Shown in pieces: positions 6,157 to 57,590 of a stretch of 64,000 nt of DNA. Every line of letters begins with the position of its first letter. The stretch's first letter is position 1. The position numbers and the translations under genes are program-made. The notes under the pieces were generated by a model that saw only the letters and a list, made by a program, of their open reading frames with translations, had not been told where the DNA came from and did no database searches. Origin of the DNA: Candidatus Omnitrophota bacterium (lineage in GTDB: Bacteria > Omnitrophota > Gorgyraeia > Duberdicusellales > 4484-171); assembly GCA_037146775.1 (NCBI GenBank), contig JBAWWL010000005.1:102241-166240 (forward strand), read 5' to 3'.

Positions 6157-6334
6157 TTTCTGGGACGTGATACTTAACCAACGATTCGCATAAAAATAAG
6201 TTGACACTAATACGTTCCGTGATTAAATAGCTTTACCGAAAAAAGGCAGTTGCTAATCAAAAAGTTTCATAACTGCCGAGACTATATTCTGTTATGCGTA
6301 AGTTCTAGCTTTGCATTTGGTGTAGAGCATTTTT

Positions 6335-6432
6335 TCGGTATACCCCGCCAAGAATCTTAAATTTCTTACGAAATTTAAGAGGCGGTCCTTCGGGCAAAAA
6401 ATGCACGCGTTTTCGCGCAGGCATTTTTTAGG
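6335..6432. other. Small structured stem-loop element (family A/B/C, copy A)
   Basis: Outer stem ccccgcc/ggcgg, an inner hairpin 'aaatttcttacgaaattt', a 'ccttcggg' hairpin, then a stem 'aaaaaatgc...gcatttttt'. It has the same architecture as the 61990-62130 copy. Confidence 0.3.
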
Positions 6433-6444
6433 TTAGAACTAAAA

Positions 6445-6592
6445 AATGGGGAGGTCGTAAAACGGCCTGAGAGTTCCCGTGACGACGGGATTACCCTTTG
6501 AACCTGTTCGCCTTTGTTTTAGCAAGTGGCGAAATCTCGACAAATTACAATTTGTCGGAATCTGGATAATACCAGCGTAGGAAATGGGCTCG
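6445..6592 (+). ncRNA. TPP (thiamine pyrophosphate) riboswitch aptamer
   Basis: 'ggggaggtcg...cCUGAGAgttcccgtgacgacgggattACCCTTTGAACCTG...ATCTGGATAATACCAGCGTAGGAA' contains the conserved THI-box segments, with two inserted hairpins in the P3 region. It lies upstream of thi4-thiM-thiE. Confidence 0.8.
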
Positions 6593-6597
6593 AATTT

Positions 6598-6632
6598 TAG
6601 ACCCTTATGTCGCTGGCATAAGGGTTTTTTAA
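6598..6632 (+). terminator. Riboswitch expression-platform terminator
   Basis: 'gacccttatgtcgctggcataagggtttttt' is a stem plus U-run immediately 3' of the aptamer. Confidence 0.7.
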
Positions 6633-6689
6633 TGAACACATCATTTTTCTAAGCGTGTAGCGTACAGGGAAAATGATGTGTCCAAGAAG

Positions 6690-6790
6690 TACATCCCGGC
6701 TCGCCTGTATACGGGGTAAATTTTCTTCGTAAATTTACCTCCGAGCTCGTCGGGATCAACTCGCGCTATCATTTTTTGGCTTGGGTACAC
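6690..6790. other. Structured stem-loop element (family A/B/C, copy C) in the thi4 leader
   Basis: 'ggtaaattttcttcgtaaatttacc' hairpin (similar to copy A 'aaatttcttacgaaattt'), then 'cgctatcattttttgg...ccaaaaaatgatgcg'. Confidence 0.25.
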
Positions 6791-7866: not shown

Positions 7867-8670
7867 ATGGAAAAAATAAGCATTGATGCTTATAGCTTGC
7901 TAGAAAGAGTAAGAGCGCAGAAACCAATAGTGCACCATCTTACTAACTGGGTTACTATTTATGATTGCGCCAATATTGTTAAGGTGCTGGGCGGGTCTCC
8001 GGTTATGGCACATGCCAAAGAAGAAGTTGCTGAAATGGCGTCTTTAGCTAGCGCGCTGGTTTTAAATATCGGCACACTCACCGTTGAATTAGTTGAGGCG
8101 ATGAAAATTGCTGCTTCTAGCGCCAAAAATAAAGGCATTCCTATTATACTAGATGTTTGTGGCGCCGGAGCTACAACCTTACGTGATAAGAAAAGCTTTG
8201 AATTACTTGAGAATACGCATATTGATATCATCAAGGGTAACGTTTCCGAAATTGCCAGAATTGCCGGAGAAAACGTTGTCACAAAAGGGGTAGATGCCGT
8301 TTCAGTTAATCATGATATGCGCTTTATCGCTGAGCGTTTAGCCCGAGAGCGTAAATGCACAGTAGTGGTTACCGGCAAAGAAGACATAATCAGCGACACG
8401 AAAACTACTTACTGCGTTGCCAACGGCGACCCGATAATGGCGTATGTAGTAGGAACGGGTTGTATGGCCGCCTCGGTTATCGCTACCTTTGCCGCCATCG
8501 AAAAAAATTTTGTATACGCTTCAACTGCGGGCCTTGTTTGTTTTGAAATCGCCGCAGAATTAGCCGCTAAGCAATCACCCGGCCCCGGTTCTTTTAAAGA
8601 ACAGTTATTTGACTACCTTTTTCGTTTAGATAAAAAAACTATCGACGAACGGCAGAAGGTAACAGCATGA
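7867..8670 (+). CDS. thiM: Hydroxyethylthiazole kinase
   Basis: 'IVHHLTNWVTIYDCANIVKVLGGSPVMAHA...DVCGAGAT...VVGTGCM' shows ThiM family hallmarks. Confidence 0.9.
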   Translation: MEKISIDAYSLLERVRAQKPIVHHLTNWVTIYDCANIVKVLGGSPVMAHAKEEVAEMASLASALVLNIGTLTVELVEAMKIAASSAKNKGIPIILDVCGAGATTLRDKKSFELLENTHIDIIKGNVSEIARIAGENVVTKGVDAVSVNHDMRFIAERLARERKCTVVVTGKEDIISDTKTTYCVANGDPIMAYVVGTGCMAASVIATFAAIEKNFVYASTAGLVCFEIAAELAAKQSPGPGSFKEQLFDYLFRLDKKTIDERQKVTA

Positions 8671-9278
8671 AAGGCTATTATTTTATTACCGACGCTATTT
8701 TAAGTAGAGCCGGTAACTTTAGTGATGTCAGGAATGCCTTGCGTGCCGGGGTTAGGGTTGTACAGTATAGGAACAAGTGTGGCTCTACCAAAGCAATGCA
8801 TGAGGAGGCGTTAAGTTTGCGCGCACTCTGCAAAGACATACTTTTTATTATCAACGACAGAATTGATATAGCTCTAAGCGTTGGCGCTGACGGAGTGCAT
8901 TTAGGCCAGGAAGACTTGCCATACGCAAGTGCTAGAAAACTTTTGGGAAAAAAGAAAATTATCGGTATGACCGTGCACAGTGTGGCAGAGGCTAAAAGGG
9001 CACAAAGTTTAGGTGCAGACTATATCGGGGTTTCGCCGATTTTTACTACTCAGACAAAAAATGACGCTGGCAAAGCCTTAGGGGTTACGATTATAGAAAA
9101 AATTAAAAAAGAAGTACAGCTGCCGTTAGTCGCTGTAGGTGGTATAGATTTAATTAATGCCGCTTTTGTAATTACCGCCGGAGCGGATAGCCTATGTGCG
9201 ATATCCGCGGTCATACGTAAAGCTAACGTAAAGAACGAGATAGAAAAGTTTCAGCGACTATTTAAAAATAGCCGTTAA
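8667..9278 (+). CDS. thiE: Thiamine-phosphate synthase
   Basis: 'YFITD...VQYRNK...IIND...GVHLGQEDL...IGVSPIFTTQTK...AVGGI' TMP-TPase motifs. Start overlaps the thiM stop (ATGA). Confidence 0.9.
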   Translation: MKGYYFITDAILSRAGNFSDVRNALRAGVRVVQYRNKCGSTKAMHEEALSLRALCKDILFIINDRIDIALSVGADGVHLGQEDLPYASARKLLGKKKIIGMTVHSVAEAKRAQSLGADYIGVSPIFTTQTKNDAGKALGVTIIEKIKKEVQLPLVAVGGIDLINAAFVITAGADSLCAISAVIRKANVKNEIEKFQRLFKNSR

Positions 9279-10240: not shown

Positions 10241-10424
10241 ATCCCGCGAGGTCGGAGAAGCTTATTGTTTAAAGCCACTCATTCGTTTTTCGGAGGAAAA
10301 TTATTATCGTTGCAAAAACGTATAGAAATATTACAATATAGACGCAAAAGCCGGCGGTATATATGTAGTATTTTTTCTGTAAATCATCTTGCTGCGGATG
10401 GTTTCAGATAATAAGGAATATGCA

Positions 10425-11276
10425 ATGGATCGAATTGTTACTTTTCAAGGCAATCCTTTAACTTTGGTGGGTAGAGTTTTGCGGCTCAACGCCCCTGCGC
10501 CTCAGTTTAAAACAGTTTCTACATCTTTAAAAGAGGTGAATCTTTCCGACTTTCAGGGGAAAACAAAAGTTATTACCTCTTTTCCTTCCGCGGATACTCC
10601 GGTTTGCGACTTGCAACTAAAAGAATTTAATAAAAGAGCGGTTTCATTATCTGGCGATATAGTTATTCTGGGTATTAGCAAAGATTTACCTTTTGCCCAA
10701 AAGCGGTTCTGCGAACTCAATAACATCAAAAATGTAACTACGCTTTCCGACTATAAATATTCCTCCTTCGGCTTAAATTACGGTTTACTCATTAAAGAAT
10801 TAAATCTTTTAGCCAGGGCGGTATTAGTCGTGGATAAAAATGATATATTAAGGTATATGCGCATAGTGGATGAAATAACGCAGCCGCCCAACTATGACGA
10901 TGTTTTAAAGAATCTTGAAATTGTATTGCATAATTCGGTTATCCCTCCAAAAGAGCAATTGCCCGGTCATTGCAAGCCCTGCGAGGCCGGCACCCCTGCT
11001 TTATCTAAAGAAAGAATAGAGAAGCTTCTTGTCGAACACCACGGTTGGCAATTGGTAGAAGATAGAAAATTAGTCAAAGAATTCCAGCATAAAGATTTCG
11101 CCGAAGCAAAATATTTTCTTGATATAGTCGCGCTTATCGCCGAAGAACAGGGCCATCATCCTATGATGACTATAATGTATACTAAGGTAAAAATTACGCT
11201 TACTACGCACGCATCAGGAGGGTTGACCGAAAACGATTTTATAATGGCAAAAATCATCGACGAAGTAAGGGGGTAA
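10425..11276 (+). CDS. tpx: Fusion protein: thiol peroxidase (Tpx, atypical 2-Cys peroxiredoxin) + pterin-4a-carbinolamine dehydratase (PCD/DCoH)
   Basis: The N-terminal approximately 165 aa aligns to Tpx ('VTFQGNPLTL...SFPSADTPVCDLQ...LPFAQKRFC...ARAVLVVDKND'). The C-terminal approximately 100 aa is PCD-like ('EHHGWQLVEDRKLVKEFQHKDFAEAKYFLDIVALIAEEQGHHPMMTIMYTKVKITLTTH'). RBS precedes the ATG at 10425. Confidence 0.8.
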   Translation: MDRIVTFQGNPLTLVGRVLRLNAPAPQFKTVSTSLKEVNLSDFQGKTKVITSFPSADTPVCDLQLKEFNKRAVSLSGDIVILGISKDLPFAQKRFCELNNIKNVTTLSDYKYSSFGLNYGLLIKELNLLARAVLVVDKNDILRYMRIVDEITQPPNYDDVLKNLEIVLHNSVIPPKEQLPGHCKPCEAGTPALSKERIEKLLVEHHGWQLVEDRKLVKEFQHKDFAEAKYFLDIVALIAEEQGHHPMMTIMYTKVKITLTTHASGGLTENDFIMAKIIDEVRG

Positions 11277-14679: not shown

Positions 14680-14898
14680 ATGCCCCTTTATGCATACTAC
14701 TGCAAGAAATGTTCCGAAAAGTTTGATCTGCTTTTGGGCATGAGCCAGGAGAAAACAGAATTGAAATGCCCGGCTTGTAAAAGCAAAAAGATAGAAAAAG
14801 TATTCGCTCCGTTTCGGGTAGGCGGCTCAAGCAGCGAAAAGAATTCTTCCTCGAAGTGTGGTTCCTGTTCCGGAGGGTCCTGTTCAGGCTGCCACTAA
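14680..14898 (+). CDS. FmdB-family zinc-ribbon protein
   Basis: 'YAYYCKKCSEKFD...LKCPACKS...' has two CxxC pairs, with a Ser/Gly/Cys-rich tail. Confidence 0.7.
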   Translation: MPLYAYYCKKCSEKFDLLLGMSQEKTELKCPACKSKKIEKVFAPFRVGGSSSEKNSSSKCGSCSGGSCSGCH

Positions 14899-14934
14899 AT
14901 TAGGCTAAAGACCACAAAGGAAAATAATATTAAT

Positions 14935-15030
14935 ATACTAAACCCTACCCCAAAAATCCTAAACTCTAAACAAACTCAAAACCAAAATTATCCAAACTCG
15001 AACCATTAGAGTTCAGTGTTTTTAGTGTCG
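14935..15030. repeat. Heptamer-built palindromic repeat family, copy I (partial)
   Basis: 'cctaaactctaaacaaactcaaaaccaaaa...gagttcagtgtttttagtg' shares CTAAAC/TTTAG motifs with the copies at 23640 and 57428. Confidence 0.4.
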
Positions 15031-15035
15031 AGATT

Positions 15036-15947
15036 ATGAAAACATACGACTTAATAATTCTTGGTGCCGGCCCGGCTGGCATAACTGCTGCAGTCTATGC
15101 AGCCAGAAAAAAACTCGATTTTTTAGTTATTACCCAAGACGTCGGTGGACAAACCGTTTGGAGCGGTGATATAGAAAATTATACCGGTTATCAATTCATC
15201 AGCGGCCCGGATCTTGCTTTAAAATTTCAAGAACACATGAATGCTTTTTCCATGTCGGTACATATGCCGGAAGAAGTTCAGTATCTCGCGAAAGCCGGCC
15301 GATTAGTAGAGGTGCGGACCGATAAAGGAAGCTATCTTTCTAAGGCGGCAATTATTGCGACCGGAAAACATCCACGTTCTCTCAGTGTTCCCGGAGAAAA
15401 AGAATTTAGAAATCGCGGCGTGACGTATTGCGCTACCTGTGACGGCCCTTTGTTCAAAGACAAAACCGTAGCCGTGGTTGGAGGAGGCAACTCCGCACTT
15501 GATGCGGCGCTGCAGATGATAAAGATCTCGCCAAAAGTTCATGTCATTAATACCGCTGCCCGTCTGACTGCGGACCCTGTTATGACAGAGAAGCTGCAAA
15601 GGGCAACGAATGCCGAAATATGGAATAATGCCAAAGTAACAAAGATCAGCGGTGATACCTTCGTAGGGAGTTGTGAAGTAGAAAAAGATGGTGTATCATT
15701 TTCTCTGGCGGTGTCGGGGATTTTGATAGAAATTGGCTTAATTCCTAATTCTGATTTTACTAAGGCAGTGAAACGCAACGATGTGGGGGAAATTATTGTC
15801 GATAACCATAATAGCACCGACATCGAAGGTATTTTTTCCGCGGGAGACGTAACAGACGTTTTTGAGAAACAAATTATCGTTGCCTGTGGTGAAGGCGCAA
15901 AAGCCTGCCTTGCGGCATTTCATTATCTATCAACTCATGATTTTTAA
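15036..15947 (+). CDS. trxB: Thioredoxin-disulfide reductase-like flavoprotein
   Basis: 'DLIILGAGPAGITAA' FAD-binding motif, redox-active 'CATCDG', and a second GGGNSA NAD(P)-binding motif. Confidence 0.8.
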   Translation: MKTYDLIILGAGPAGITAAVYAARKKLDFLVITQDVGGQTVWSGDIENYTGYQFISGPDLALKFQEHMNAFSMSVHMPEEVQYLAKAGRLVEVRTDKGSYLSKAAIIATGKHPRSLSVPGEKEFRNRGVTYCATCDGPLFKDKTVAVVGGGNSALDAALQMIKISPKVHVINTAARLTADPVMTEKLQRATNAEIWNNAKVTKISGDTFVGSCEVEKDGVSFSLAVSGILIEIGLIPNSDFTKAVKRNDVGEIIVDNHNSTDIEGIFSAGDVTDVFEKQIIVACGEGAKACLAAFHYLSTHDF

Positions 15948-15985
15948 ATGTTTCTTGCTTCCAAGTATCGAGAGGATTTTTTAAC

Positions 15986-16465
15986 ATGATCATATTATCT
16001 CCTACGCTAATTAATTTTTTCGAAAAACAAACATTCGTAATTGTTTCTACTATTGATAGTTCAGGGAGCATTAATTGTGCGGCAAAAGGAATTGTTATGG
16101 CCCAGAAGCAAGGCAAGATCTACCTGATAGACCTTTACAAAACGAACACCTTTCACAATTTACAGGAAAATCACACCATTAGCGTTACTGCCGTAGATGA
16201 ACATCTGTTTATGGGGTACACATTAAAGGGCCGGGCACGTATGGTGGCACGTGATAAAATAGGCGCACCGCTGATAAAAAAATGGGAAGCAAGAGTTGTC
16301 CATCGCATTTCCAAGCGGCTCATTAAAAACGTCAAAGATAATAGAGATTCTCGGCACCATCCTGAAGTAAAGTTTCCTTATCCTCAGTATCTTATTGAAA
16401 TGTCAGTTGAAGAGGTGGTAGATTTGACACCCGCCCACCTTAAACAAGATTTTTCTCGTTCATGA
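15986..16465 (+). CDS. Pyridoxamine 5'-phosphate oxidase-like FMN-binding split-barrel protein
   Basis: 159 aa. The 'FVIVSTIDSSGSINCAAKG...' N-terminal pattern is typical of PNPOx-like general stress proteins. Weak call. Confidence 0.45.
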   Translation: MIILSPTLINFFEKQTFVIVSTIDSSGSINCAAKGIVMAQKQGKIYLIDLYKTNTFHNLQENHTISVTAVDEHLFMGYTLKGRARMVARDKIGAPLIKKWEARVVHRISKRLIKNVKDNRDSRHHPEVKFPYPQYLIEMSVEEVVDLTPAHLKQDFSRS

Positions 16466-23621: not shown

Positions 23622-23639
23622 TATGTTTATAAATCCGAA

Positions 23640-23762
23640 ACACGAAATCCTAAACACTAAACAAATCAAAAATTCAAAATCCAAAACCAAAAAAGTTTTA
23701 AGTTTGTGATTTCAAGTTTTGTATTTATTTAGGATTTAGAGTTTAGTGTTTAGAGTTTGAGC
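23640..23762. repeat. Heptamer-built palindromic repeat family, copy II
   Basis: Left arm 'aaatcctaaacactaaacaaatcaaaa...' and right arm '...atttaggatttagagtttagtgtttagagtttgag' form an imperfect long inverted repeat. It ends 5 nt before the etfA start. Confidence 0.45.
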
Positions 23763-30737: not shown

Positions 30738-30775
30738 CATTGACGAACCGTTTTATTTCTAATATAATAAACATT
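30738..30775 (+). promoter_or_regulatory. Sigma70-like promoter upstream of the EF-G paralog
   Basis: TTGACG-N17-TATAAT ('ttgacgaaccgttttatttctaatataat'), about 100 nt upstream of the start codon. Confidence 0.45.
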
Positions 30776-30874: not shown

Positions 30875-32884
30875 ATGCGAGAGGACCTAAATAAAAAAAA
30901 GGTTTTTCTTTTGTGTGGGCATGCTCAGTCGGGTAAGACTTCAATCTGTGAAACACTTCTTTTTAAATGTGGTGCCACCAGCCGGCTCGGTAAGATCGAC
31001 GAGGGTACCACTGTCAGTGATTACGAAGAAGACGAAAAAGAGCGCAAGAGCTCAATCAATATGTCGGTGCTTTATGCGGAATATAAAGATAATTTCTTGC
31101 AGTTTATCGATGTGCCGGGGTATCTTGATTTTATCGGTGAATTAAATTGCGCTGCCAGAGCCGTTGACTTTGCCGCCTTGGTTGTCGATGCTTCCGGCGG
31201 AGTTGAGGTGGGAACGGAAAAGGCATGGGAAATTATCAGGAAAGAAAATTTACCGTGTTTTTTTATCGTCAATAAAATCGACAAGGAAAATACCAGTTAC
31301 GAAAAAACCGTGGAAGACATTCGTAACGGTCTTACCAAAAAAGCCATACCGTTCGCTACGCCGGATAAAGGAAAGATTATCAGCGTCCTTAAAGATAAAA
31401 GTAATCCGTATTACGGACAAATTGTCGAGGCTGTTGCGGAAACCGACGATGCGCTTTTGACGAAGTATTTAGAGAAGGGTACGTTGGAGGAGCAAGAATT
31501 AATAGCAGCCCTGAAAAAGGCTGTTCTCGGTGCGCAGATTTTTCCGGTAATTCCTTTTACGGCTCTCCAGGCACAGGGTATAGATACGCTTTTAGAAACA
31601 CTTTTAGAAGATATGCCCTCGGTTGCTCAAGGCCGGCCGCGGCAGGCAAAGAATACCAAGACAAATGAGATGGTAACCATCGAACCAAAAACCAACGCCC
31701 CATTAGCCATGCAAATTTTTAAAACAGTAATTGATCCGTTTGTCGGCCAGCTGAATATTTTCAGGGTTTTTGCAGGCAAGATCGCGTCAGGCTCTGAAGT
31801 TATGAATTCTAGCAAGAAAGAAAAAGAAAAAATCAGTCAGTTGTATCTTATGCAGGGAAAACAACAAGTTCCCCAGGAAGCACTCTGCAGCGGAGATATA
31901 GGAGCGTTGGCAAAACTGAGGGTCACTACTACGCAGGATACATTCTGTGAAGTTAACAATCCGCTTGAGTTTTCGTTAATAGAATTTCCTCTTCCTTCTT
32001 TTTCTGCTTCGGTGAAGCCAAAAACGCGCCAGGATGAAGATAAAATTTCCAGCGTGCTTTCTCGTCTTACCAGCGAAGATCAAACGTTTAAGGTATCGAG
32101 AGACTCACAGACTAAAGAGCTGATTATTTCTGGTATGGGAGAACTGCACCTGCACGTTATTATTGAACGAATGAAAAGAAGATATCAGGCAAATGTTGAG
32201 CTGGGAACGCCGAAAGTCGCATACCTGGAAACAGTCACCCGTTCGATTAAAGTGCAGGGCAAACATAAGAAACAATCCGGCGGCCGCGGCCAATACGGTG
32301 ATTGCTGGATAGAAGTTGAACCTAGAGAGCGCGGTAAAGGCTTTGAGTTTGTAGATAAAATATTTGGTGGCGCTATTCCGCGTAACTTTATTCCTTCTGT
32401 TGAGAAAGGGATAGTAAAAGCGCTCGACGAAGGAATACTTGCGGGTTATCCCGTCACTGATTTGAGAGTTATCCTCGTCGACGGTTCATATCACGACGTA
32501 GACTCTTCCGATATTGCTTTTCAGATAGCCGGTTCAATGGCATTTAAGAAAGCGCTTGAGCAAGCCGGCAGCGTGCTTCTTGAGCCGATTATGAACGTTG
32601 AGATCGTTGCTCCGGAAGAATTTATGGGCCAGATTACCGGTGATATTAATGCTCGCCGCGGAAGAGTAATGGGGATGGAAGTAAAAGGCAGAAATCAAGT
32701 AGTGAAAGCCCAAGTACCCCAGGTGGAAATGTTTAAGTATGCCTCCGATCTGCGTTCGTTTACCGGCGGACGGGGGAGTTATTCGATGCATTTCTCTCAT
32801 TACGAGATTGTTCCCGGCCGCCTATCTCAGGCAATTGTTGAGGGCGCAAAGAGAGAAACCGAAAAGGTTGCGAAGGTAGAATGA
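30875..32884 (+). CDS. Divergent EF-G family translational GTPase (EF-G paralog)
   Basis: G1 'GHAQSGKTS', G3 'DVPGYLDF', G4 'NKID'. Domains II-V are EF-G-like ('...ISGMGELHLHVIIERMKRRY...'). Confidence 0.8.
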   Translation: MREDLNKKKVFLLCGHAQSGKTSICETLLFKCGATSRLGKIDEGTTVSDYEEDEKERKSSINMSVLYAEYKDNFLQFIDVPGYLDFIGELNCAARAVDFAALVVDASGGVEVGTEKAWEIIRKENLPCFFIVNKIDKENTSYEKTVEDIRNGLTKKAIPFATPDKGKIISVLKDKSNPYYGQIVEAVAETDDALLTKYLEKGTLEEQELIAALKKAVLGAQIFPVIPFTALQAQGIDTLLETLLEDMPSVAQGRPRQAKNTKTNEMVTIEPKTNAPLAMQIFKTVIDPFVGQLNIFRVFAGKIASGSEVMNSSKKEKEKISQLYLMQGKQQVPQEALCSGDIGALAKLRVTTTQDTFCEVNNPLEFSLIEFPLPSFSASVKPKTRQDEDKISSVLSRLTSEDQTFKVSRDSQTKELIISGMGELHLHVIIERMKRRYQANVELGTPKVAYLETVTRSIKVQGKHKKQSGGRGQYGDCWIEVEPRERGKGFEFVDKIFGGAIPRNFIPSVEKGIVKALDEGILAGYPVTDLRVILVDGSYHDVDSSDIAFQIAGSMAFKKALEQAGSVLLEPIMNVEIVAPEEFMGQITGDINARRGRVMGMEVKGRNQVVKAQVPQVEMFKYASDLRSFTGGRGSYSMHFSHYEIVPGRLSQAIVEGAKRETEKVAKVE

Positions 32885-33570
32885 AGATAGCTACATTCGG
32901 TCTTGAGATACAACCTGGCAAATACAAATATACCTGCGAGTGTTTCGAAAAACTAGTTAAAAAGTTTTCACCGAAGAAAGAAACGCCCTATACGGTTGAA
33001 TGTGTTGGTGACGATTATGTCAAAGCCGATGCTATTGTGTTTGACAGCAATAAAAAATTGGATTTTATTTTTATCGATTTAGAAAAAATAGAAAACCGTG
33101 CCATGAGAACCGGTGAAGAGCAGGAGAAATTATTTCTTAAAAAATGCCAGGATCTGCTTGAGAAAGAGGAGCTTCTTTGCGAGCAGCAGTTTAGCGCTTC
33201 GGAGCAATCTTTTCTGAAAAATATTTCACCAGTAACATACAAGCCTTGTCTTGGGGTTCCGGCAGTCGAACATATAAATAAGCTTATCGAAGAGCTCATG
33301 CGTAAAGCCGGCGTCATACTTTTTTTTACTGCCGGAGAAAAGGAAGTCCATGCATGGGAAGTGGCGCGTGGCTCTACGATTGTTGAGGCCGCCGGTAAAA
33401 TTCATACCGACCTGGCCAGGGGTTTTATTAAGGGAGAAGTCACGCAATGCAAAGACTTGGATAAATTTTTTAATATGGCAGAGGCACGGGCTAAAGGATT
33501 CGTGAAAGTCGTTGATAAAAACTATATTATGGAAGAAGGCAATATCATTGAAATAAAATTCAGCGTCTAA
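32881..33570 (+). CDS. YchF/Ola1-like protein with degenerate G-domain and intact C-terminal TGS-like (YchF_C) domain
   Basis: The C-terminus 'FFTAGEKEVHAWEVARGSTIVEAAGKIHTDLARGFIKGEV...GNIIEIKFSV' closely parallels the YchF C-terminus. The N-terminal 'GLEIQPGKYKYT' stands in place of the P-loop 'GLPNVGKST'. It is translationally coupled (ATGA) to the EF-G paralog. Confidence 0.6.
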   Translation: MKIATFGLEIQPGKYKYTCECFEKLVKKFSPKKETPYTVECVGDDYVKADAIVFDSNKKLDFIFIDLEKIENRAMRTGEEQEKLFLKKCQDLLEKEELLCEQQFSASEQSFLKNISPVTYKPCLGVPAVEHINKLIEELMRKAGVILFFTAGEKEVHAWEVARGSTIVEAAGKIHTDLARGFIKGEVTQCKDLDKFFNMAEARAKGFVKVVDKNYIMEEGNIIEIKFSV

Positions 33571-33573
33571 CGG

Positions 33574-33600
33574 CACAGATTACAAAATCTGTGTAATCAG
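33574..33600. promoter_or_regulatory. Palindromic ACAGATT/AATCTGTGTAATC motif immediately upstream of purH
   Basis: 'cacagattacaaaatctgtgtaatcag' contains the exact 13-mer 'aatctgtgtaatc' (33586-33598) also found upstream of folE. Confidence 0.4.
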
Positions 33601-33609
33601 TGGTTTATT

Positions 33610-35124
33610 ATGTTAAAAATAAGAAGAGCTTTGATCAGTGTGTGGGAAAAAAAGGGTTTGGTTGAGTTCGCGCGAAAATTAGCCGAATGGAAGGTTGAGA
33701 TAATTTCTACCGGTAAAACCGCAACCATGCTGCGCTCCAGCGGCATCCCCGTTAAGGACGTATCCGCCGTTACTTCGTTTCCCGAAATTCTTTCCGGAAG
33801 AGTTAAAACTCTGCATCCAAAAATATTTGGCGGTATATTGGCGAACAAAAAACACCCTTTACACATGGAGGAGATAAAAAACCTGAGTATCCAGCCGATC
33901 GATATGACGGTAGTTAACCTGTATCCATTTATGCAAAAAATTGGTTCAAAATTGAACTTTGACGAAATGATGGAATATGTCGACATCGGCGGCTGTGCGT
34001 TGCTTCGGGCTTCGGCAAAGAATTTCAAAAATGTCGCCTGTCTCAGTTCCCCAGCGCATTATAAACTCGTACTTGAGGAGATGGAAAAAAATAAGGGCGA
34101 TATTAGCGAGGAGACACTTAAGTTTCTCGCACAAGAGGCTTTTTATGTAACCAAAGAATACGATTCCTGTATCTACAATTATTTTTCCGGCAGGGAAGTA
34201 TTGAATTGGGATTTGGAAAAGATAAATTCGCTGCGTTACGGAGAGAATCCCCATCAGACAGGAGCTCTTTATAAAACGGCCAAGGCCCAGGAATTAAAGT
34301 ATACACAGCTTCAGGGTAAAGAATTATCCTTCAATAATCTTCTTGATTTGGATACCGCCTTTATTATTGTGAGGGATTTTGTCGAGCCGGCAGTGGCTAT
34401 CGTCAAGCACGCTTCTATCTGCGGCGTGGGTGTTGACAGGCGCTTGCCGCACGCCTACAAAAAAGCCTATGTAGCCGATCCTATCTCCAGCTTCGGCGGT
34501 ATTGTCGGCATTAACAGGAAAGTTGACAAAGATACCGCCCAGCAATTTATAAAAAGCGATTTTAAGGAATGCGTGATTGCTCCTTCTTATTCTAAAGAGG
34601 CACTTAAGATTTTTTCTTCCAAGAAAAACCTGAGAGTACTCGAGGCAGATTTTCATCAGAAATTGAGTTATCAAGATATTAGGGCGACCGTTTTTGGCTA
34701 TCTCGTCCAGGACAGAGACGCTTTGCTTTTAGAAAAGGCAAGCATGAAGGTGGTTACGAAAAGAAAACCGACACAACAAGAACTTAAAGATATGTTTTTT
34801 GCCTGGAAGATTGCTAAATACGTAAAATCAAATGCTATTGTGATCGCTAAAAATGTTACTGTGTTAGGTATTGGAGGGGGGCAGCCGTCGCGAGTGGGCG
34901 CGGCGAAAATTGCTCTAGATCGTGCAGGAAAATCCTGCCGTGGGGCAGTGATTGCTTCCGATGGCTTTTTCCCAAAAGAAGATTCATTAAAAGTTGCGTA
35001 TAAAAAAGGGATCAGAGCCGTAATACAGCCAGGCGGCTCGATCAAAGACAATGACCTTATTGCGCTTTGTAATAAACTCAAAATAAGCATGGTATTTACG
35101 GGTATACGCCACTTCCGCCACTAA
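33610..35124 (+). CDS. purH: Bifunctional AICAR transformylase / IMP cyclohydrolase
   Basis: The MGS-like N-terminus 'RALISVWEKKGLVEFARKLAEWKVEIISTGKTA' followed by the AICARFT domain. Confidence 0.9.
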   Translation: MLKIRRALISVWEKKGLVEFARKLAEWKVEIISTGKTATMLRSSGIPVKDVSAVTSFPEILSGRVKTLHPKIFGGILANKKHPLHMEEIKNLSIQPIDMTVVNLYPFMQKIGSKLNFDEMMEYVDIGGCALLRASAKNFKNVACLSSPAHYKLVLEEMEKNKGDISEETLKFLAQEAFYVTKEYDSCIYNYFSGREVLNWDLEKINSLRYGENPHQTGALYKTAKAQELKYTQLQGKELSFNNLLDLDTAFIIVRDFVEPAVAIVKHASICGVGVDRRLPHAYKKAYVADPISSFGGIVGINRKVDKDTAQQFIKSDFKECVIAPSYSKEALKIFSSKKNLRVLEADFHQKLSYQDIRATVFGYLVQDRDALLLEKASMKVVTKRKPTQQELKDMFFAWKIAKYVKSNAIVIAKNVTVLGIGGGQPSRVGAAKIALDRAGKSCRGAVIASDGFFPKEDSLKVAYKKGIRAVIQPGGSIKDNDLIALCNKLKISMVFTGIRHFRH

Positions 35125-35240
35125 CCCAAAAAATGCATGCTTCGCAGGCATTTTTTGGGTTAATCTTTCTTTTTAAAAATATCACTCTGCTATTCGGAAT
35201 AAAAAACTATCGAAACAGATTTTAAAAAGTTCCACCGTCT

Positions 35241-36593
35241 ATGAAGCCGACAAAGATACATAGTTTTTCCGACGCCCAAGCCTATCTAAACAGCTTTGTT
35301 AACTATGAGCGTAACGTTAAATTTCCTTATGCGAAAACATTAAAATTAGACCGCGTCGAAACTCTTCTCGAGCGCCTGCGTATTTCTTATCAGTCCTTGA
35401 GAGTGATCCATATTGCCGGGACAAAAGGTAAGGGCTCAACCGCGTATTTCTGTGCGCACGTATTAGCCGCTTCCGGCTTTCGTGTGGGTTTGTATACCTC
35501 GCCGCATTTTTTTAATTTTAGGGAACGGATTGTGATCAAGAAGCCTGTGTGTAGCGGCCAGAGAACGGTGGTAAAAGATACTTGTATCGCAGAAAAGGAT
35601 GTGGTGGAGATAGTGCGTGGTATGCAACCAGAGCTGGAACGCTTACGTTATAAAAAAACGTTAGGGATGTTGAGCTTCTTTGAGGTATATACCGCTATAG
35701 CCTTTACATATTTTCTTAAAAACCATCTCGACTTTGTTGTCTTAGAAACCGGCCTCGGCGGCCGCCTCGACGCCACCAATGTCGTAACGCCTTTGTGTTC
35801 CGTTATCACTCATATCGGCTATGATCATATTGATACGCTTGGCACTTCTCTGGCCAGTATCGCGCGGGAAAAAGCCGGCATTATCAAACATGCGGTCCCG
35901 GTGATTGTCGCTTCACAGAGGGTATCCGTTTATCGTCAGATTCGTAAACGCGCTCTAAAGCAAAGGACTCCGGCATTTTTTTTCGGCCGCGAGATAAAGG
36001 CAACAGAGATCCGGCTTGGGAAAAACAGCACCACTTTTAATTTTCATTATAACGGTATTGCTTTGAAAAACATAAAAATATGTCTTCGCGGAAAATATCA
36101 AATCGAGAACGCCTCTTTAGCCATAGCGTCAATTATGGTATTGCAGCAACAGGGATATGTGAGAGGTTCCGTACTTTTTCGGCAAGGGCTTCGTGATGCA
36201 TTTGTGGCGGGGAGGTTCGAGACGGTTAAAAGAAACCCTCTGATCGTTGTCGATGTCGCGCACAATCCTTCTGCGTTTACCGCTTTGGCAGAAAATCTGA
36301 AATTATATTTTCCCGCAAAAAAAATAATTCTTATTTTTGCCGCCTCCCGCGATAAAGATGTCCGGCACATGCTCGATAAAATAAAATACACACAGCTTAT
36401 CCTTACCCGTTTTTCTAACCCCAGGTCATTTACGCCGGACGAGATAAGGTCGCGATGCCGTATAAAAAATACCTTGATAGCCAGTGACGTTAAGGAGGCC
36501 TTGGGTATGGCGAGACAGTTCTGTACCCGCGAACACGCGATCGTGATTAGCGGCTCGTTGTTTTTGGTAAGTGAGGCAAAAAGAATAGTGTAG
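35241..36593 (+). CDS. folC: Folylpolyglutamate synthase / dihydrofolate synthase
   Basis: Mur ligase fold with P-loop 'HIAGTKGKGST' and 'VLETGLGGRLDATNV'. Confidence 0.85.
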   Translation: MKPTKIHSFSDAQAYLNSFVNYERNVKFPYAKTLKLDRVETLLERLRISYQSLRVIHIAGTKGKGSTAYFCAHVLAASGFRVGLYTSPHFFNFRERIVIKKPVCSGQRTVVKDTCIAEKDVVEIVRGMQPELERLRYKKTLGMLSFFEVYTAIAFTYFLKNHLDFVVLETGLGGRLDATNVVTPLCSVITHIGYDHIDTLGTSLASIAREKAGIIKHAVPVIVASQRVSVYRQIRKRALKQRTPAFFFGREIKATEIRLGKNSTTFNFHYNGIALKNIKICLRGKYQIENASLAIASIMVLQQQGYVRGSVLFRQGLRDAFVAGRFETVKRNPLIVVDVAHNPSAFTALAENLKLYFPAKKIILIFAASRDKDVRHMLDKIKYTQLILTRFSNPRSFTPDEIRSRCRIKNTLIASDVKEALGMARQFCTREHAIVISGSLFLVSEAKRIV

Positions 36594-36704
36594 CCCATAA
36601 GGCGTTCAGTCAACGATCGGTGCGCCACCAGCTTCCCATAATCCGTTTACTGTGCCGACTTTATCGATAGACTTTCTGGAGACTTTGCACTACAATACAT
36701 AGCT

Positions 36705-38147
36705 ATGTATTATGGCCAATTGAAAAATTATAATTGTAAAGACACTATTGCTGCGATTGCGACATTTCCTGCCCAGTCAGCCATAGGTATCATTAAGATT
36801 TCCGGCAAACGTGCGATCTCTATTGTGTCAGGGGTTTTTCTATCCCGGAAAAAGAAGGATCTCAAAAAAGTAAAAACATATACATTGCATTACGGCTGGA
36901 TCGTAGAGAAATTAAAAGTAAAAAATCAAAAATCAAAAAAGAACGTAATGGTCGACGAAGTTTTGGTAAGCGTAATGAAAGGGCCTCGTTCATATACCAA
37001 AGAAGATGTTGTCGAGATATCCTGTCATGGCGGGCCGGCGGTATTACAGAAAATTTTAGAAATTATAATCCAACAAGGAGCGCGGCCGGCCTCGCCGGGG
37101 GAATTTACCTACCGAGCTTTTGTAAACGGCAGAATTGACCTCTTACAGGCGGAGGCGATAGCCAGTATCGTAGAAGCAAAAACTTCACATTCGCTTGAGC
37201 CGGCGATGCAGCAGCTAAGAGGCGAGGCTTCCGTCCGTTTGCAGGAGATAAAAGAAACGATAAAAGAACTTTTTAGCCACACTCAAGCACTGCTTGATTT
37301 TCCCGAAGATAATATCACGCTGAGCGTTTCTGCTGTTACCAAGAGGCTTGTCGTGGTCAAGAAAAAGCTGGATGCCATGCTCCAGGGCGGCACACGGGCC
37401 AGGATACTTAAGGAGGGTTTACGTTGTGTTATCTGCGGTAAAACTAACGTAGGCAAGTCGACTCTTTTTAATCGCCTCTTGAACCAGGAACGCGTTATTG
37501 TCAGCCGATTACCCGGTACTACCCGGGATGTTGTCGAAGAAACTATTTCCATAAGGGGCGTTCCTTTGCGTATATATGATACTGCGGGGATCCTTGAGCC
37601 GAAAGATTTGGTTGAAAAAAAAGCTGTTGAAAAATCATCACACGCTTTCCAGGAAGCGGATATGGTGCTTTTGATGCTTGATGGTTCGCGCAAACTGCAA
37701 AAAGCCGATAGATTTCTTTTAGAAAAGATTACGCAGGCGGTAAAAGCAGATACGGGCAAAAAAGTCATCGTTATTATTAATAAAACCGATTTGCGGCAGA
37801 AATTGGTGTGTGAGAATTTAACGGGAGCTTGTGTCCGTCTGGTGCGGGTGAGTGCCTTGAGGGATAAAGGAATTAAGAGTTTAGAGAAGGCAATAGTTGA
37901 CCTTGTCTATAAAGAGGGATTAAAGAGGGACGATATTATTTTTTTAAATCAGCTGCAGCGCAGAACCCTGGAAGAAGCAAATCTCAGCATAGCCGAAGCC
38001 CTTGAATATCTACGAAAAAGTTATACGATAGATTTTGTGCAGGCATCGTTGCAACAAGCCATTGATGCCATAGGCAGGATTAGCGGCGCGATACCCAACG
38101 AGGAAATTCTCAAAGAAATATTCAGTAGATTCTGTATCGGCAAATGA
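36705..38147 (+). CDS. mnmE: tRNA modification GTPase MnmE (TrmE)
   Basis: G-domain 'ICGKTNVGKSTLFN...DTAG', N-terminal THF-binding domain, and the C-terminal 'CIGK' motif. Confidence 0.9.
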   Translation: MYYGQLKNYNCKDTIAAIATFPAQSAIGIIKISGKRAISIVSGVFLSRKKKDLKKVKTYTLHYGWIVEKLKVKNQKSKKNVMVDEVLVSVMKGPRSYTKEDVVEISCHGGPAVLQKILEIIIQQGARPASPGEFTYRAFVNGRIDLLQAEAIASIVEAKTSHSLEPAMQQLRGEASVRLQEIKETIKELFSHTQALLDFPEDNITLSVSAVTKRLVVVKKKLDAMLQGGTRARILKEGLRCVICGKTNVGKSTLFNRLLNQERVIVSRLPGTTRDVVEETISIRGVPLRIYDTAGILEPKDLVEKKAVEKSSHAFQEADMVLLMLDGSRKLQKADRFLLEKITQAVKADTGKKVIVIINKTDLRQKLVCENLTGACVRLVRVSALRDKGIKSLEKAIVDLVYKEGLKRDDIIFLNQLQRRTLEEANLSIAEALEYLRKSYTIDFVQASLQQAIDAIGRISGAIPNEEILKEIFSRFCIGK

Positions 38148-38204
38148 GCACACAATAGACATCCCGCAAAGATCAGGATGTCTTGATTAAGAAGATTAGG
38201 GCAA

Positions 38205-38316
38205 GATTACACAGATTGTTTTAGAGAGAATCCCGCACATTTTGTTTAGAAACTCTTAATCTGTGTAATCGATTTTAAATCAGTGTAATCAGGTATAATC
38301 TTAATAAATTATACCT
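38205..38316. promoter_or_regulatory. folE leader: 13-bp perfect inverted repeat of the AATCTGTGTAATC motif plus -10-like palindrome
   Basis: 'gattacacagatt' (38205-38217) and 'aatctgtgtaatc' (38258-38270) are exact reverse complements. 'gtgtaatcag' occurs again at 38284-38293. 'ggTATAATcttaataaattatacc' holds a TATAAT inside an 8-bp inverted repeat. Confidence 0.4.
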
Positions 38317-38339
38317 AAAGATTATACCAGGAGGCAAAA

Positions 38340-38897
38340 ATGGATAAGAAGAAAATTCAAAAGGGTGTAACGTTAATATTGGAAGCGGTCGGCGCGGATT
38401 TGGGAAAAAAAGATATTGGGACCACTCCGCAGCGTGTCGCTGAAATGTACGAAGAAATACTGGCCGGGCAATTTAGCAGCGCGGAAGATGAGTTGGAAGT
38501 AGTGTTGGAACAGAAGCATGACGAAATAATCCTGCTTAAAGATATACCGCTTTATTCGCTGTGTGAGCACCATCTTCTCCCTTTTATGGGTAAAGCGCAT
38601 GTTGCTTATATTCCTGATGAGCGTATAACCGGTTTAAGTAAAATTGCCAGGGTAGTGGACGTGCTTTCCAAGCGTTTACAGGTTCAGGAGCGGCTTACCA
38701 CCGAAATTGCCGACGTGATCATGAAAAAACTTAAGCCCAAAGGGGTTATGGTAGTTATAGAAGCGGAACATTTGTGTATGTCTATGCGGGGAGTGAAAAA
38801 ACCAGGAACGCTGACTACTACTTCTGTGGTCAGGGGGGTATTTCGAACCAATCAAAAAACTCGCCAGGAAACTTTAAGTTTAATCAGCACGCGCTGA
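38340..38897 (+). CDS. folE: GTP cyclohydrolase I
   Basis: '[11 protein letters not shown]...[19 protein letters not shown]...' shows the FolE catalytic motifs. Confidence 0.9.
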
Positions 38898-52643: not shown

Positions 52644-52788
52644 TGAATTAGGAGGCGACGAAAAGGCAATTCCCGGTGTAAGCCGGGATGCGCAAAGCCA
52701 CGGGTCCCGAACGTTTGCAGGTTGTAGGTAATAAGTATTAATTTAAGTGTCTATACTTATCACCTACATATTAATGAAGGAAAGGGAT

Positions 52789-52840
52789 AGCCGAGCTGCC
52801 GAACGTCTCGAAAGAGCGGCAGTTCGGCTATTTTTATTTT
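52789..52840 (+). promoter_or_regulatory. Strong hairpin + U-run in the pilin leader (attenuator/terminator-like), directly before the first pilin RBS
   Basis: 'agccgagctgccgaacgtctcgaaagagcggcagttcggct' is a 13-bp stem, followed by 'atttttatttt' and then 'aggagg'. Confidence 0.4.
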
Positions 52841-57342: not shown

Positions 57343-57427
57343 TAAGTGCTATGATAATGTTAAAAGTTTTATGAAAGACTATGGATAAAAGTATTGAATT
57401 TAAAGGGATATTGTCACCGGAGGAGGG

Positions 57428-57590
57428 AAACTCTAAATCCTAAACCCTAAATAAACTCAAAATGAGCCAAACCCAAAACCCACAACGAGATGAATTAAGA
57501 CAAAAGCCTTGTATTTTTTAATGTTTTGAGTTTGGGGTTTGATATTTTGGATTTGTTTAGAGTTTAGAGTTTCGGGTTTAGAGTTTAAAA
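57428..57590. repeat. Heptamer-built palindromic repeat family, copy III (longest)
   Basis: Left arm 'aaaCTCTAAATCCTAAACCCTAAAtaaactcaaaa...'. Right arm '...ttttgagtttggggtttgat...gTTTAGAGTTTAGAGTTTcgggTTTAGAGttt'. Arms of about 60 nt each around an approximately 35-nt loop. Confidence 0.5.

Follow-up and report, generated by a model that had tools for sequence, protein, structure and literature searches.

A 13-mer common to the purH and folE spacers of an Omnitrophota genome as the probable unit of a widespread intergenic palindromic repeat family

The window analyzed in this work is a 64,000-nt stretch from a Candidatus Omnitrophota bacterium (GCA_037146775.1, contig JBAWWL010000005.1, positions 102,241 to 166,240 of the forward strand). 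The intergenic spacers upstream of purH and folE in this window have the 13-mer AATCTGTGTAATC in common, and the folE spacer also contains its reverse complement, GATTACACAGATT. We found that both spacers carry members of one hairpin family, and that this 13-mer is probably the unit of a widespread intergenic palindromic DNA repeat, with a complete copy upstream of folE and a truncated copy upstream of purH. The arms in this family are built from C(A/G)C(A/G)GAT-type units repeated at intervals of ~9-20 bp. The sequence common to the two spacers, which are 4.7 kb apart, would thus come from the membership of their hairpins in one repeat family, not from a shared regulator. Because the repeat is dispersed, the shared motif is a trap for annotation and gives no grounds for inferring a purine/folate regulon. 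The family spans gut Bacteroides and uncultured Omnitrophota and is linked to the uncharacterized GxxExxY nuclease family; if this link is causal, it would provide a testable function for GxxExxY. Additionally, such hairpins can disturb model-based RNA detection.

Exact copies of AATCTGTGTAATC are located on the forward strand in both spacers, and GATTACACAGATT precedes the folE copy with a 40-nt spacer (Table 1). These positions agree with a preliminary description of this DNA, as do the gene names purH (ATG at 33610) and folE. The same description called the 13-mer palindromic, which it is not; the sequence holds a direct AATC...AATC repeat and forms an inverted repeat only with its reverse-complement copy. 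The additional GTGTAATCAG reported near folE is present, but at 38283-38292 instead of 38284-38293; it occurs again at the purH site and overlaps a fourth copy of the 13-mer with one mismatch (AATCAGTGTAATC). Matches to the 13-mer with up to two mismatches number six in the window compared with 1.6 expected, and none of 100 shuffles reached six. All four copies of the 8-mer GTGTAATC in the 64 kb are inside the purH and folE spacers, and three or more C[AG]CNGAT units within 100 nt are clustered at these two sites alone (0.26 expected). By recurrence alone, the signal is not overwhelming, given that four 13-mers have at least three copies in the window and zero to three do so in shuffles. The reality of the shared motif is settled by the arrangement of the copies and by the evidence for an external family.

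The folE element could be aligned with 13 metagenome members and one locus of a related genome (L089, 6108-6192; the prefix L denotes loci in this work), which gave the consensus TGATTACACAGATTA..AAGATTACACAGATT-loop-TAATCTGTGTAATC..AATCNGTGTAATCA. The fold prediction that had been proposed for the folE leader returned a strong structure, with the entire mnmE-folE spacer at -51.9 kcal/mol (z -5.4 vs. shuffles). The purH element is a collapsed and truncated copy with a canonical right arm: AATCTGTGTAATCAGTGG has one mismatch to the right end of the family, AATCTGTGTAATCTGTGG, and the left arm is a stub. This site has its own inverted repeat (CACAGATT-ACAA-AATCTGTG, with the latter at 33586-33593), and the corresponding RNA hairpin is weak (-10.9 kcal/mol, z -1.7). 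The proximity of these two copies fits a local duplication or conversion, for which the paired GCGGAT copies in a relative (L084) provide a parallel. Adjacent to the folE element, a hairpin of GGTATAATCTT and AAGATTATACC abuts the Shine-Dalgarno sequence of folE (AGGAGG, 38329-38334), and GGTATAATCTT has alternative partners, ATTATACC, at 38308 and 38321. The TATAAT noted beside the motif is indeed there (38294-38299), as part of GGTATAATCTT, the 5' arm of this 11-bp inverted repeat. Because GTATAATC differs from the GTGTAATC unit by one base, this TATAAT is more probably an arm or a variant unit than a -10 box. As a promoter it was rejected, since it has no -35 partner and the GTATAATC variant recurs in family members (L131 and L201). 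The sequence ATCCCGCA is found twice, at 38160-38167 within the hairpin that directly follows mnmE and at 38230-38237 within the loop of the folE hairpin.

For the distribution beyond this lineage, metagenome contigs were scanned for the exact pattern GATTACACAGAT-N15-45-ATCNGTGTAATC. At least 120 contigs from gut, soil, sediment, sludge, and termite samples matched, while we roughly estimated that less than one match would be expected by chance. The conservation of the inner arms is partly by construction, because exact inner arms defined the selection; the outer units were unconstrained. Among the 120 matches listed, to which the following counts refer, GC content ranges from 32 to 68% and 110 hairpins are intergenic. 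The flanking genes are co-directional in 55 cases, convergent in 17, and divergent in 13. Family members typically begin 5-30 nt past a stop codon. The genes 3' of the hairpins represent 86 Pfam families (69 genes) and those 5' represent 122 families (82 genes); approximately 200 families adjoin hairpins and the commonest has five members. A clustering near pur/fol/gly genes, for which the preliminary description had proposed a check, was not observed, with purine or folate genes accounting for four of 151 neighbors (FolD twice, FTCD_N, and PurD).

Two architectures are frequent in this family. Tandem 9-10-nt units (CCACA GATTACACA GATTAACACA GATT ...) were found in 44 of the 120 matches, and a 13-mer repeated with a 6-12-nt spacer was found in 25; the folE element of the window belongs to the latter. 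The 3' end of the family, ...AATCNGTGTAATCAG, is the 10-mer common to both window sites, and the outermost units are often ATCCACA/TGTGGAT(AA). BLAST recovered the hairpin from 21 records of Bacteroides finegoldii, Haliscomenobacter, and Persicobacter, in which it occupies 43 places that all lack annotation; one of these copies begins 8 nt past a stop codon. Outside the hairpins, no nucleotide similarity to the window was found in the metagenome loci. The family thus spans at least two phyla, Omnitrophota and Bacteroidota, as well as contigs of widely differing GC content, and its copies are dispersed beside unrelated genes. A scan of viral contigs with the same aim matched only three, such that phages are no obvious vector. 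The family was found neither in Rfam nor, by sequence-string search, in the searchable literature, and the literature on Bacteroides elements resembling repetitive extragenic palindromic (REP) sequences yielded only generic palindromic candidates.

Close relatives were obtained by exact-protein look-ups, and six of them have the same gene order of queA, an elongation factor G (EF-G)-like gene, a ychF-C-like gene, purH, folC, mnmE, and folE. In one of these (L083/L084; GCA_023227945.1, Candidatus Omnitrophica), PurH is 80% identical to that of the window. The hairpins at orthologous sites turn over rapidly. The purH spacer is only 8 nt in L085 and L091, and contains a 190-nt hairpin of GCGGAT units in L084 and a hairpin of CACGAAT units in L087. 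Upstream of folE, hairpins of CACAGATGA/ATCTGTG units were found in L085, L087, and L089, a GCGGAT hairpin with a 135-aa open reading frame (ORF) in its loop in L084, and an unrelated AT-rich hairpin in L090. In L084, L085, L087, L090, and L091, both the purH and the folE spacer lack the 8-mer GTGTAATC. The nearest homolog of the folE hairpin of the window is in L089, before an extracytoplasmic function (ECF) sigma factor gene (GATTACAGTGATTTTAAGATGATTACACAGATT ... TTAATCGGTGTAATCTG ... GAAATCGGTGTAATCAG). The EF-G-like gene is preceded by a hairpin of four CACAGATG and four ATCTGTG units in L084 and by AATCTCTGTAATC..AATCGTTGTAATC in L091, and L083/L084 have a further GCGGAT hairpin in the spacer from a rotamase gene to a pilus gene. 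Because copies precede ECF sigma factor, EF-G-like, and pilus genes, the unit type is not tied to purine/folate genes within this lineage.

More broadly, nearly all intergenic regions in L084, L085, L087, L089, and L090 are long near-perfect hairpins made of site-specific arrays of short units (GTTACGNAG, TATCAG, GAAATACA, AATTCCAA, CTAAAC, and others). The window itself has three CTAAAC-type hairpins (14940-15035, 23636-23760, and 57427-57590). Their 5' arm is rich in A and C and their 3' arm in G and T, and their core AAACAAA(T/C)TCAAAA is also found in hairpins of L084 and L085.

The spacers upstream of purH and folE have no forward-strand match to a sigma70-like promoter. A TTGAC-N17-TATAAT site with the conserved spacer TTATTTCTAA is present upstream of the EF-G-like gene in six genomes (the window, L084, L085, L087, L090, and L091), and this site (Table 1) is the probable promoter of an operon consisting of the EF-G-like gene, ychF-C, purH, folC, mnmE, and folE. 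Because the two spacers lack a promoter-like site and a conserved promoter lies upstream, the two motif sites are most probably intercistronic, and both copies would be inside the polycistronic mRNA.

Such a position raises the question of whether the hairpins act as RNA, for example as an RNase III site, as a barrier to 3'-5' exonucleases that, similar to REP sequences, would stabilize the cistron upstream, or as a terminator/attenuator by which folE and purH would be uncoupled from the adjoining genes. We consider a selected intercistronic RNA hairpin of this kind unlikely, even though several observations would agree with it: the mnmE-folE spacer is strongly structured, both sites are within the probable operon, the position upstream of folE is occupied by a hairpin in most relatives despite the turnover in sequence, and family members are typically found shortly after stop codons. 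For the region 33450-38420, Rfam gave nothing that overlaps either spacer at the gathering threshold or at E <= 10, and no Rfam family was found in 20 member loci. In the family alignment, two helices with 23 pairs are kept with no compensatory change, and complementarity is not kept at the central position of each unit. G-U pairs are as frequent on the sense as on the antisense strand (157/1654 vs. 153/1672 for 31 hairpins from Omnitrophota; 126/1976 vs. 125/1938 for 55 metagenome hairpins between co-directional genes), and folding energies in these two sets have no difference between strands. Furthermore, 13 of the 120 metagenome hairpins are between divergent genes, and the purH hairpin is weak. 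Neither window spacer has a U-tract after the stem, and the sense strand of the metagenome hairpins has an average of 1.38 T in the 10 nt past the stem. For lack of a U-tract, an intrinsic terminator was rejected. ZTP, tetrahydrofolate (THF-I and THF-II), and preQ1 riboswitches were likewise rejected, with no covariance-model match and none of the 23 pairs compensatory.

Given the conserved primary sequence, the lack of compensation and strand bias, and the lack of Rfam matches, the element behaves as a palindromic repeat at the DNA level. The suggestion of a conserved RNA hairpin was therefore right in that a hairpin is formed and belongs to a conserved family; however, it is the sequence rather than the pairing that is conserved, and the element does not behave as a regulatory RNA specific to folE or purH. 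Any effect on purH and folE, for example through possible RNase III cleavage of an intercistronic stem-loop or a delay of exonucleases by it, would be an incidental by-product.

A site array for a general DNA-binding factor found in hosts of many phyla, such as a nucleoid protein or a DnaA-like 9-mer binder, with the hairpin symmetry being secondary, is improbable. The conserved unit sequence across contigs of different GC content (among the matches listed) and the spacing of units at helical-repeat intervals would be compatible with such a factor. The DnaA-box consensus is TTATCCACA, which the outermost ATCCACA/TGTGGAT(AA) units resemble. However, the core unit TGTGTAATC agrees with the DnaA box at six of nine positions, and units vary widely within one genome (GCGGAT, CACGAAT, GAAATACA, and CTAAAC).

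The preliminary description had favored an operator for a shared regulator, i.e., a dimeric or oligomeric transcription factor that binds the 13-mer and co-regulates purine and one-carbon genes through purH and folE. This reading does not pass the refutation criterion that the preliminary description itself had set; it is largely refuted, and we regard it as slightly less probable still than a general host factor. It would account for an exact 13-mer at two functionally linked genes, for units ~10 or 20 bp apart and thus on one helix face, for the conservation of unit sequence rather than pairing, and for the two FolD, one FTCD, and one PurD among the 151 neighbors. Nevertheless, the motif is not kept in the orthologous spacers of close relatives, two of which lack a purH spacer, and the copies in relatives precede ECF sigma factor, EF-G-like, and pilus genes. 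The other 147 neighbors are unrelated and occur in every orientation, including convergent pairs, and the spacers have no promoter-like site while a conserved promoter lies farther upstream. The search for a cognate regulator found no such gene adjoining the purH and folE sites. Finally, a chance recurrence of the 13-mer in AT-rich spacers can be dismissed, because although shuffled windows also hold up to three 13-mers with at least three copies, it is refuted by the inverted arrangement, the fourth near-copy, the confinement of the 8-mer to two spacers, and the recurrence of this architecture in at least 120 contigs from elsewhere.

The relatives also provide a link to a gene family. The ORF in the loop of the folE-upstream hairpin of L084 encodes a GxxExxY protein (TIGR04256 at 4e-32; PF13366), and hairpins of C(A/G)C(A/G)GAT units enclose GxxExxY genes in relatives and in other phyla. 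Comparison of L083 and L084 revealed no mismatches over 21,340 nt, followed by a GCGGAT hairpin that is empty in L083 and filled with GxxExxY in L084, demonstrating an empty/filled polymorphism between otherwise identical strains. The left arm of the filled copy is identical to that of a copy 6.7 kb away (L083/L084 21341-21515 and 14648-15142), which suggests gene conversion or homing. Remnants of an ORF start (CACAGTAATAAGGTAAG and AATATGGGTATA, compared with CACAGAAATATGGGTAAA) open the loops of the hairpins upstream of purH in L084 and upstream of folE in L087.

In the metagenome loci listed, a GxxExxY gene adjoins a GATTACACAGAT-type hairpin in three of 120 cases (L101, L172, and L211). 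Other GxxExxY genes were found by protein similarity. The gene in Bacteroides finegoldii (L221) has arms TTCACCACAGAGGACGCAGAGGACACGGAGGAG / CTCTGTGACCTCTGTGTCCTCTGTGGTGAA, and that in Treponema (L217) has arms ACACGGATTCG / CGAATCCGTGT. A groundwater organism (L224) and a Patescibacterium (L234) have GxxExxY between inverted CGCGGAT / ATCCGCG arrays, and Gemmatirosa (L220) has a hairpin of three CGCGGAT units ~100 nt 3' of the gene. In Fusobacteria, the repeats on both sides of GxxExxY are direct, not inverted. A search of the fetched loci for GATTACACAGAT arms 200-1500 nt apart that enclose ORFs yielded nothing useful, the pattern being too strict. For the protein, residues D69, E79, and K81 are invariant, and the structure model (pLDDT 91) has its best fold matches, with modest TM scores, to Cas4 SSO0001, LHK-Exo, MGME1, and an archaeal Holliday-junction resolvase. 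GxxExxY is thus modeled as a PD-(D/E)XK nuclease fold with predicted activity; its sequence has no significant match among solved structures. The family has been listed as unknown, with multiple transfers between divisions (PMC3424549). Our literature search on GxxExxY/PDDEXK_3 found catalog mentions and no functional study.

The two window elements are best read as ORF-less copies of a palindromic element resembling REP sequences and miniature inverted-repeat transposable elements (MITEs). Hairpins without an ORF would be either non-autonomous derivatives, similar to MITEs or to hairpin-forming REP doublets (REPINs), or landing sites of a selfish element that carries the nuclease. These observations also allow a more tentative proposal, which we consider possible but short of probable: hairpins of GATTACACAGATT and of related C(A/G)C(A/G)GAT units may be the non-autonomous form of an undescribed mobile or homing element. 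The autonomous form would encode, in its hairpin loop, a GxxExxY PD-(D/E)XK nuclease of 125-150 aa that cuts empty hairpins, into which the element would then copy itself. Its range would include Omnitrophota, Patescibacteria, Bacteroidota, Spirochaetota, and Gemmatimonadota. We infer this homing or mobilization mechanism from the arrangements described above. If true, it would give a function to a large orphan family (PF13366/TIGR04256) and would account for Omnitrophota intergenic regions that are full of periodic-unit hairpins.

Several points weigh against interpreting the window copies as a dispersed and possibly mobile repeat. A hairpin of CACAGAT/ATCTGTG units persists upstream of folE in four of six genomes (the window, L085, L087, and L089), and ATCTGTGTAA abuts the Shine-Dalgarno sequence in three of these four, which might indicate that a local function is under selection, beyond mere persistence. 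The four purine/folate genes among 151 neighbors are slightly above a naive expectation of one to two. Within the ~71 kb of the source genome that were read (the window and L222), there are exactly two copies, with none in the 7.4 kb to the right of the window. The window contains no GxxExxY gene, the nuclease activity is a prediction, and for GATTACACAGATT-type hairpins, no mobility was seen and no target-site duplication was defined.

Among known systems, the family resembles REP/REPIN sequences in having short intergenic palindromes, often just past stop codons and in many copies (43 places in the Bacteroidota records), with ORF-less hairpins beside copies that flank a small enzyme gene. 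It differs in that REP sequences are usually species-specific and consist of a single 20-40-nt palindrome, whereas this unit is found across phyla and the arms are arrays of units with a 9-20-bp period. The partner gene also differs, being a GxxExxY PD-(D/E)XK nuclease rather than the Y1 transposase of REP-associated tyrosine transposases (RAYTs). The same contig has a 224-aa Y1_Tnp gene (IS200/RAYT-like; L222 13360-14034) ~0.7 kb past the right end of the window, and its flanks have no GATTACACAGATT units.

With MITEs and foldback elements, the family shares a defined end to its terminal inverted repeats (CTGATTACAC...GTGTAATCAG), repeated units in subterminal position, ORF-less copies beside ORF-bearing ones, ORF-start remnants in some loops, and presence/absence polymorphism. 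Terminal inverted repeats common to an ORF-bearing partner were found in the three metagenome loci where GxxExxY adjoins GATTACACAGAT-type hairpins, and arms of related units surround or lie near GxxExxY in L084, L217, L220, L221, L224, and L234. In contrast to MITEs, the enclosed protein is no known transposase, and transposition here would be a matter of inference. Because the palindrome ends extend variably, no target-site duplication could be defined.

Intervening sequences (IVSs) of 23S rRNA with an S23p ORF, e.g., in Coxiella burnetii, are bounded by a stem and cut out by RNase III (PMC4990558). They are similar as selfish elements in which complementary termini pair into a long stem and the loop contains a small ORF, and in their sporadic horizontal spread. 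Long terminal stems with a small loop ORF were found in the relatives, and the window copies are ORF-less. IVSs are inside rRNA helices, whereas all copies here are between protein-coding genes, and S23p is a four-helix bundle rather than a PD-(D/E)XK fold. PurR/PurBox sites and the ZTP (pfl), THF-I, and THF-II (folE motif) riboswitches are also cis elements before purH- and folE-type genes, but the present elements have no Rfam match at E <= 10, no orthologous conservation, no pathway enrichment, and unrelated neighbors. Rho-independent terminators similarly form stem-loops near stop codons; here, the stems are AT-rich with few G-C pairs, there is no sense-strand U-tract, and many copies are right before a Shine-Dalgarno sequence within operons.

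Table 1. Coordinates of the purH and folE repeat elements and neighboring features in the window.
Feature	Position	Strand	Remark
Sigma70-type promoter, TTGACG-N17-TATAAT	30740..30768	+	Upstream of the EF-G-like gene
purH element, truncated family member	33574..33603		Between the stop of the ychF-C-like ORF (33568-33570) and the purH ATG (33610)
purH element, CACAGATT	33574-33581		Followed by ACAA
purH element, AATCTGTGTAATC	33586-33598	+	Exact 13-mer
purH element, terminus GTGTAATCAG	33591-33600		Followed by TGG
purH	33610-35124		504-aa product; start backed by homolog lengths
folC	35241-36593		
mnmE	36705-38147		
Small hairpin, GACATCC...GGATGTC	38157..38183		Unrelated; directly after the mnmE stop (38147)
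folE element, complete hairpin	38182..38292 (about)		Two units per arm; aligned with 13 metagenome members and L089
folE element, left outer unit GATTAAGAAGATT	38185-38197		Degenerate; followed by spacer AGGGCAA
folE element, left inner unit GATTACACAGATT	38205-38217		Exact reverse complement of AATCTGTGTAATC
folE element, loop	38218-38257		40 nt
folE element, right inner unit AATCTGTGTAATC	38258-38270	+	Exact 13-mer; followed by GATTTTA
folE element, right outer unit AATCAGTGTAATC	38278-38290		One mismatch
folE element, terminus GTGTAATCAG	38283-38292		
Adjacent hairpin, GGTATAATCTT (38292-38302) / AAGATTATACC (38318-38328)	38292..38328		11-bp inverted repeat
folE	38340-38897		

For the genes preceding purH, the ORF at 32881-33570 (229 aa) contains only the C-terminal TGS/DUF933 part of YchF and has a 4-nt overlap with the stop codon of the EF-G-like gene. 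It has equal length in five relatives and looks like a stand-alone YchF C-domain protein that always follows an EF-G paralog. In L087, folE (14868-16409) encodes 513 aa with a faint LAGLIDADG_3 match between two GTP cyclohydrolase I segments, and the insertion is probably an intein.

Other repeat types were also found. Starting from the stop codon of purH, a 19-bp hairpin with 95% complementarity (TAACCCAAAAAATGCATGC / GCAGGCATTTTTTGGGTTA) occupies 35122-35162 of the window, and a related AAAAAATGC...GCATTTTTT is present in the spacers at ~22700 and ~6400-6440, forming a second small repeat family that is terminator-shaped. In L090, a structured repeat of ~180 nt (aaaacagtattttttcac...ttgactaaaatcgtgaatcgttcaaaaatacc) is located on both sides of folC (8516-8900 and 10359-10848), with one copy adjoining a small DUF4143-like ORF; this is another type of intergenic repeat.

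Two riboswitches were detected elsewhere in the window. A thiamine pyrophosphate (TPP) riboswitch aptamer (6437-6600) is 5' of the gene at 6781 and scores 32.2 bits compared with 54.3 bits for gathering (E 2e-4). With 164 nt against a model of 105 positions, it is below the Rfam threshold apparently because of inserted extra stem-loops, and the spacer at 6157-6780 is strongly structured (z about -6.9). A c-di-GMP-I riboswitch (RF01051, 40.5 bits) at 52655-52803 precedes a cluster of small ORFs that is followed by pilus genes of the Tad/type II secretion system (T2SS) type.

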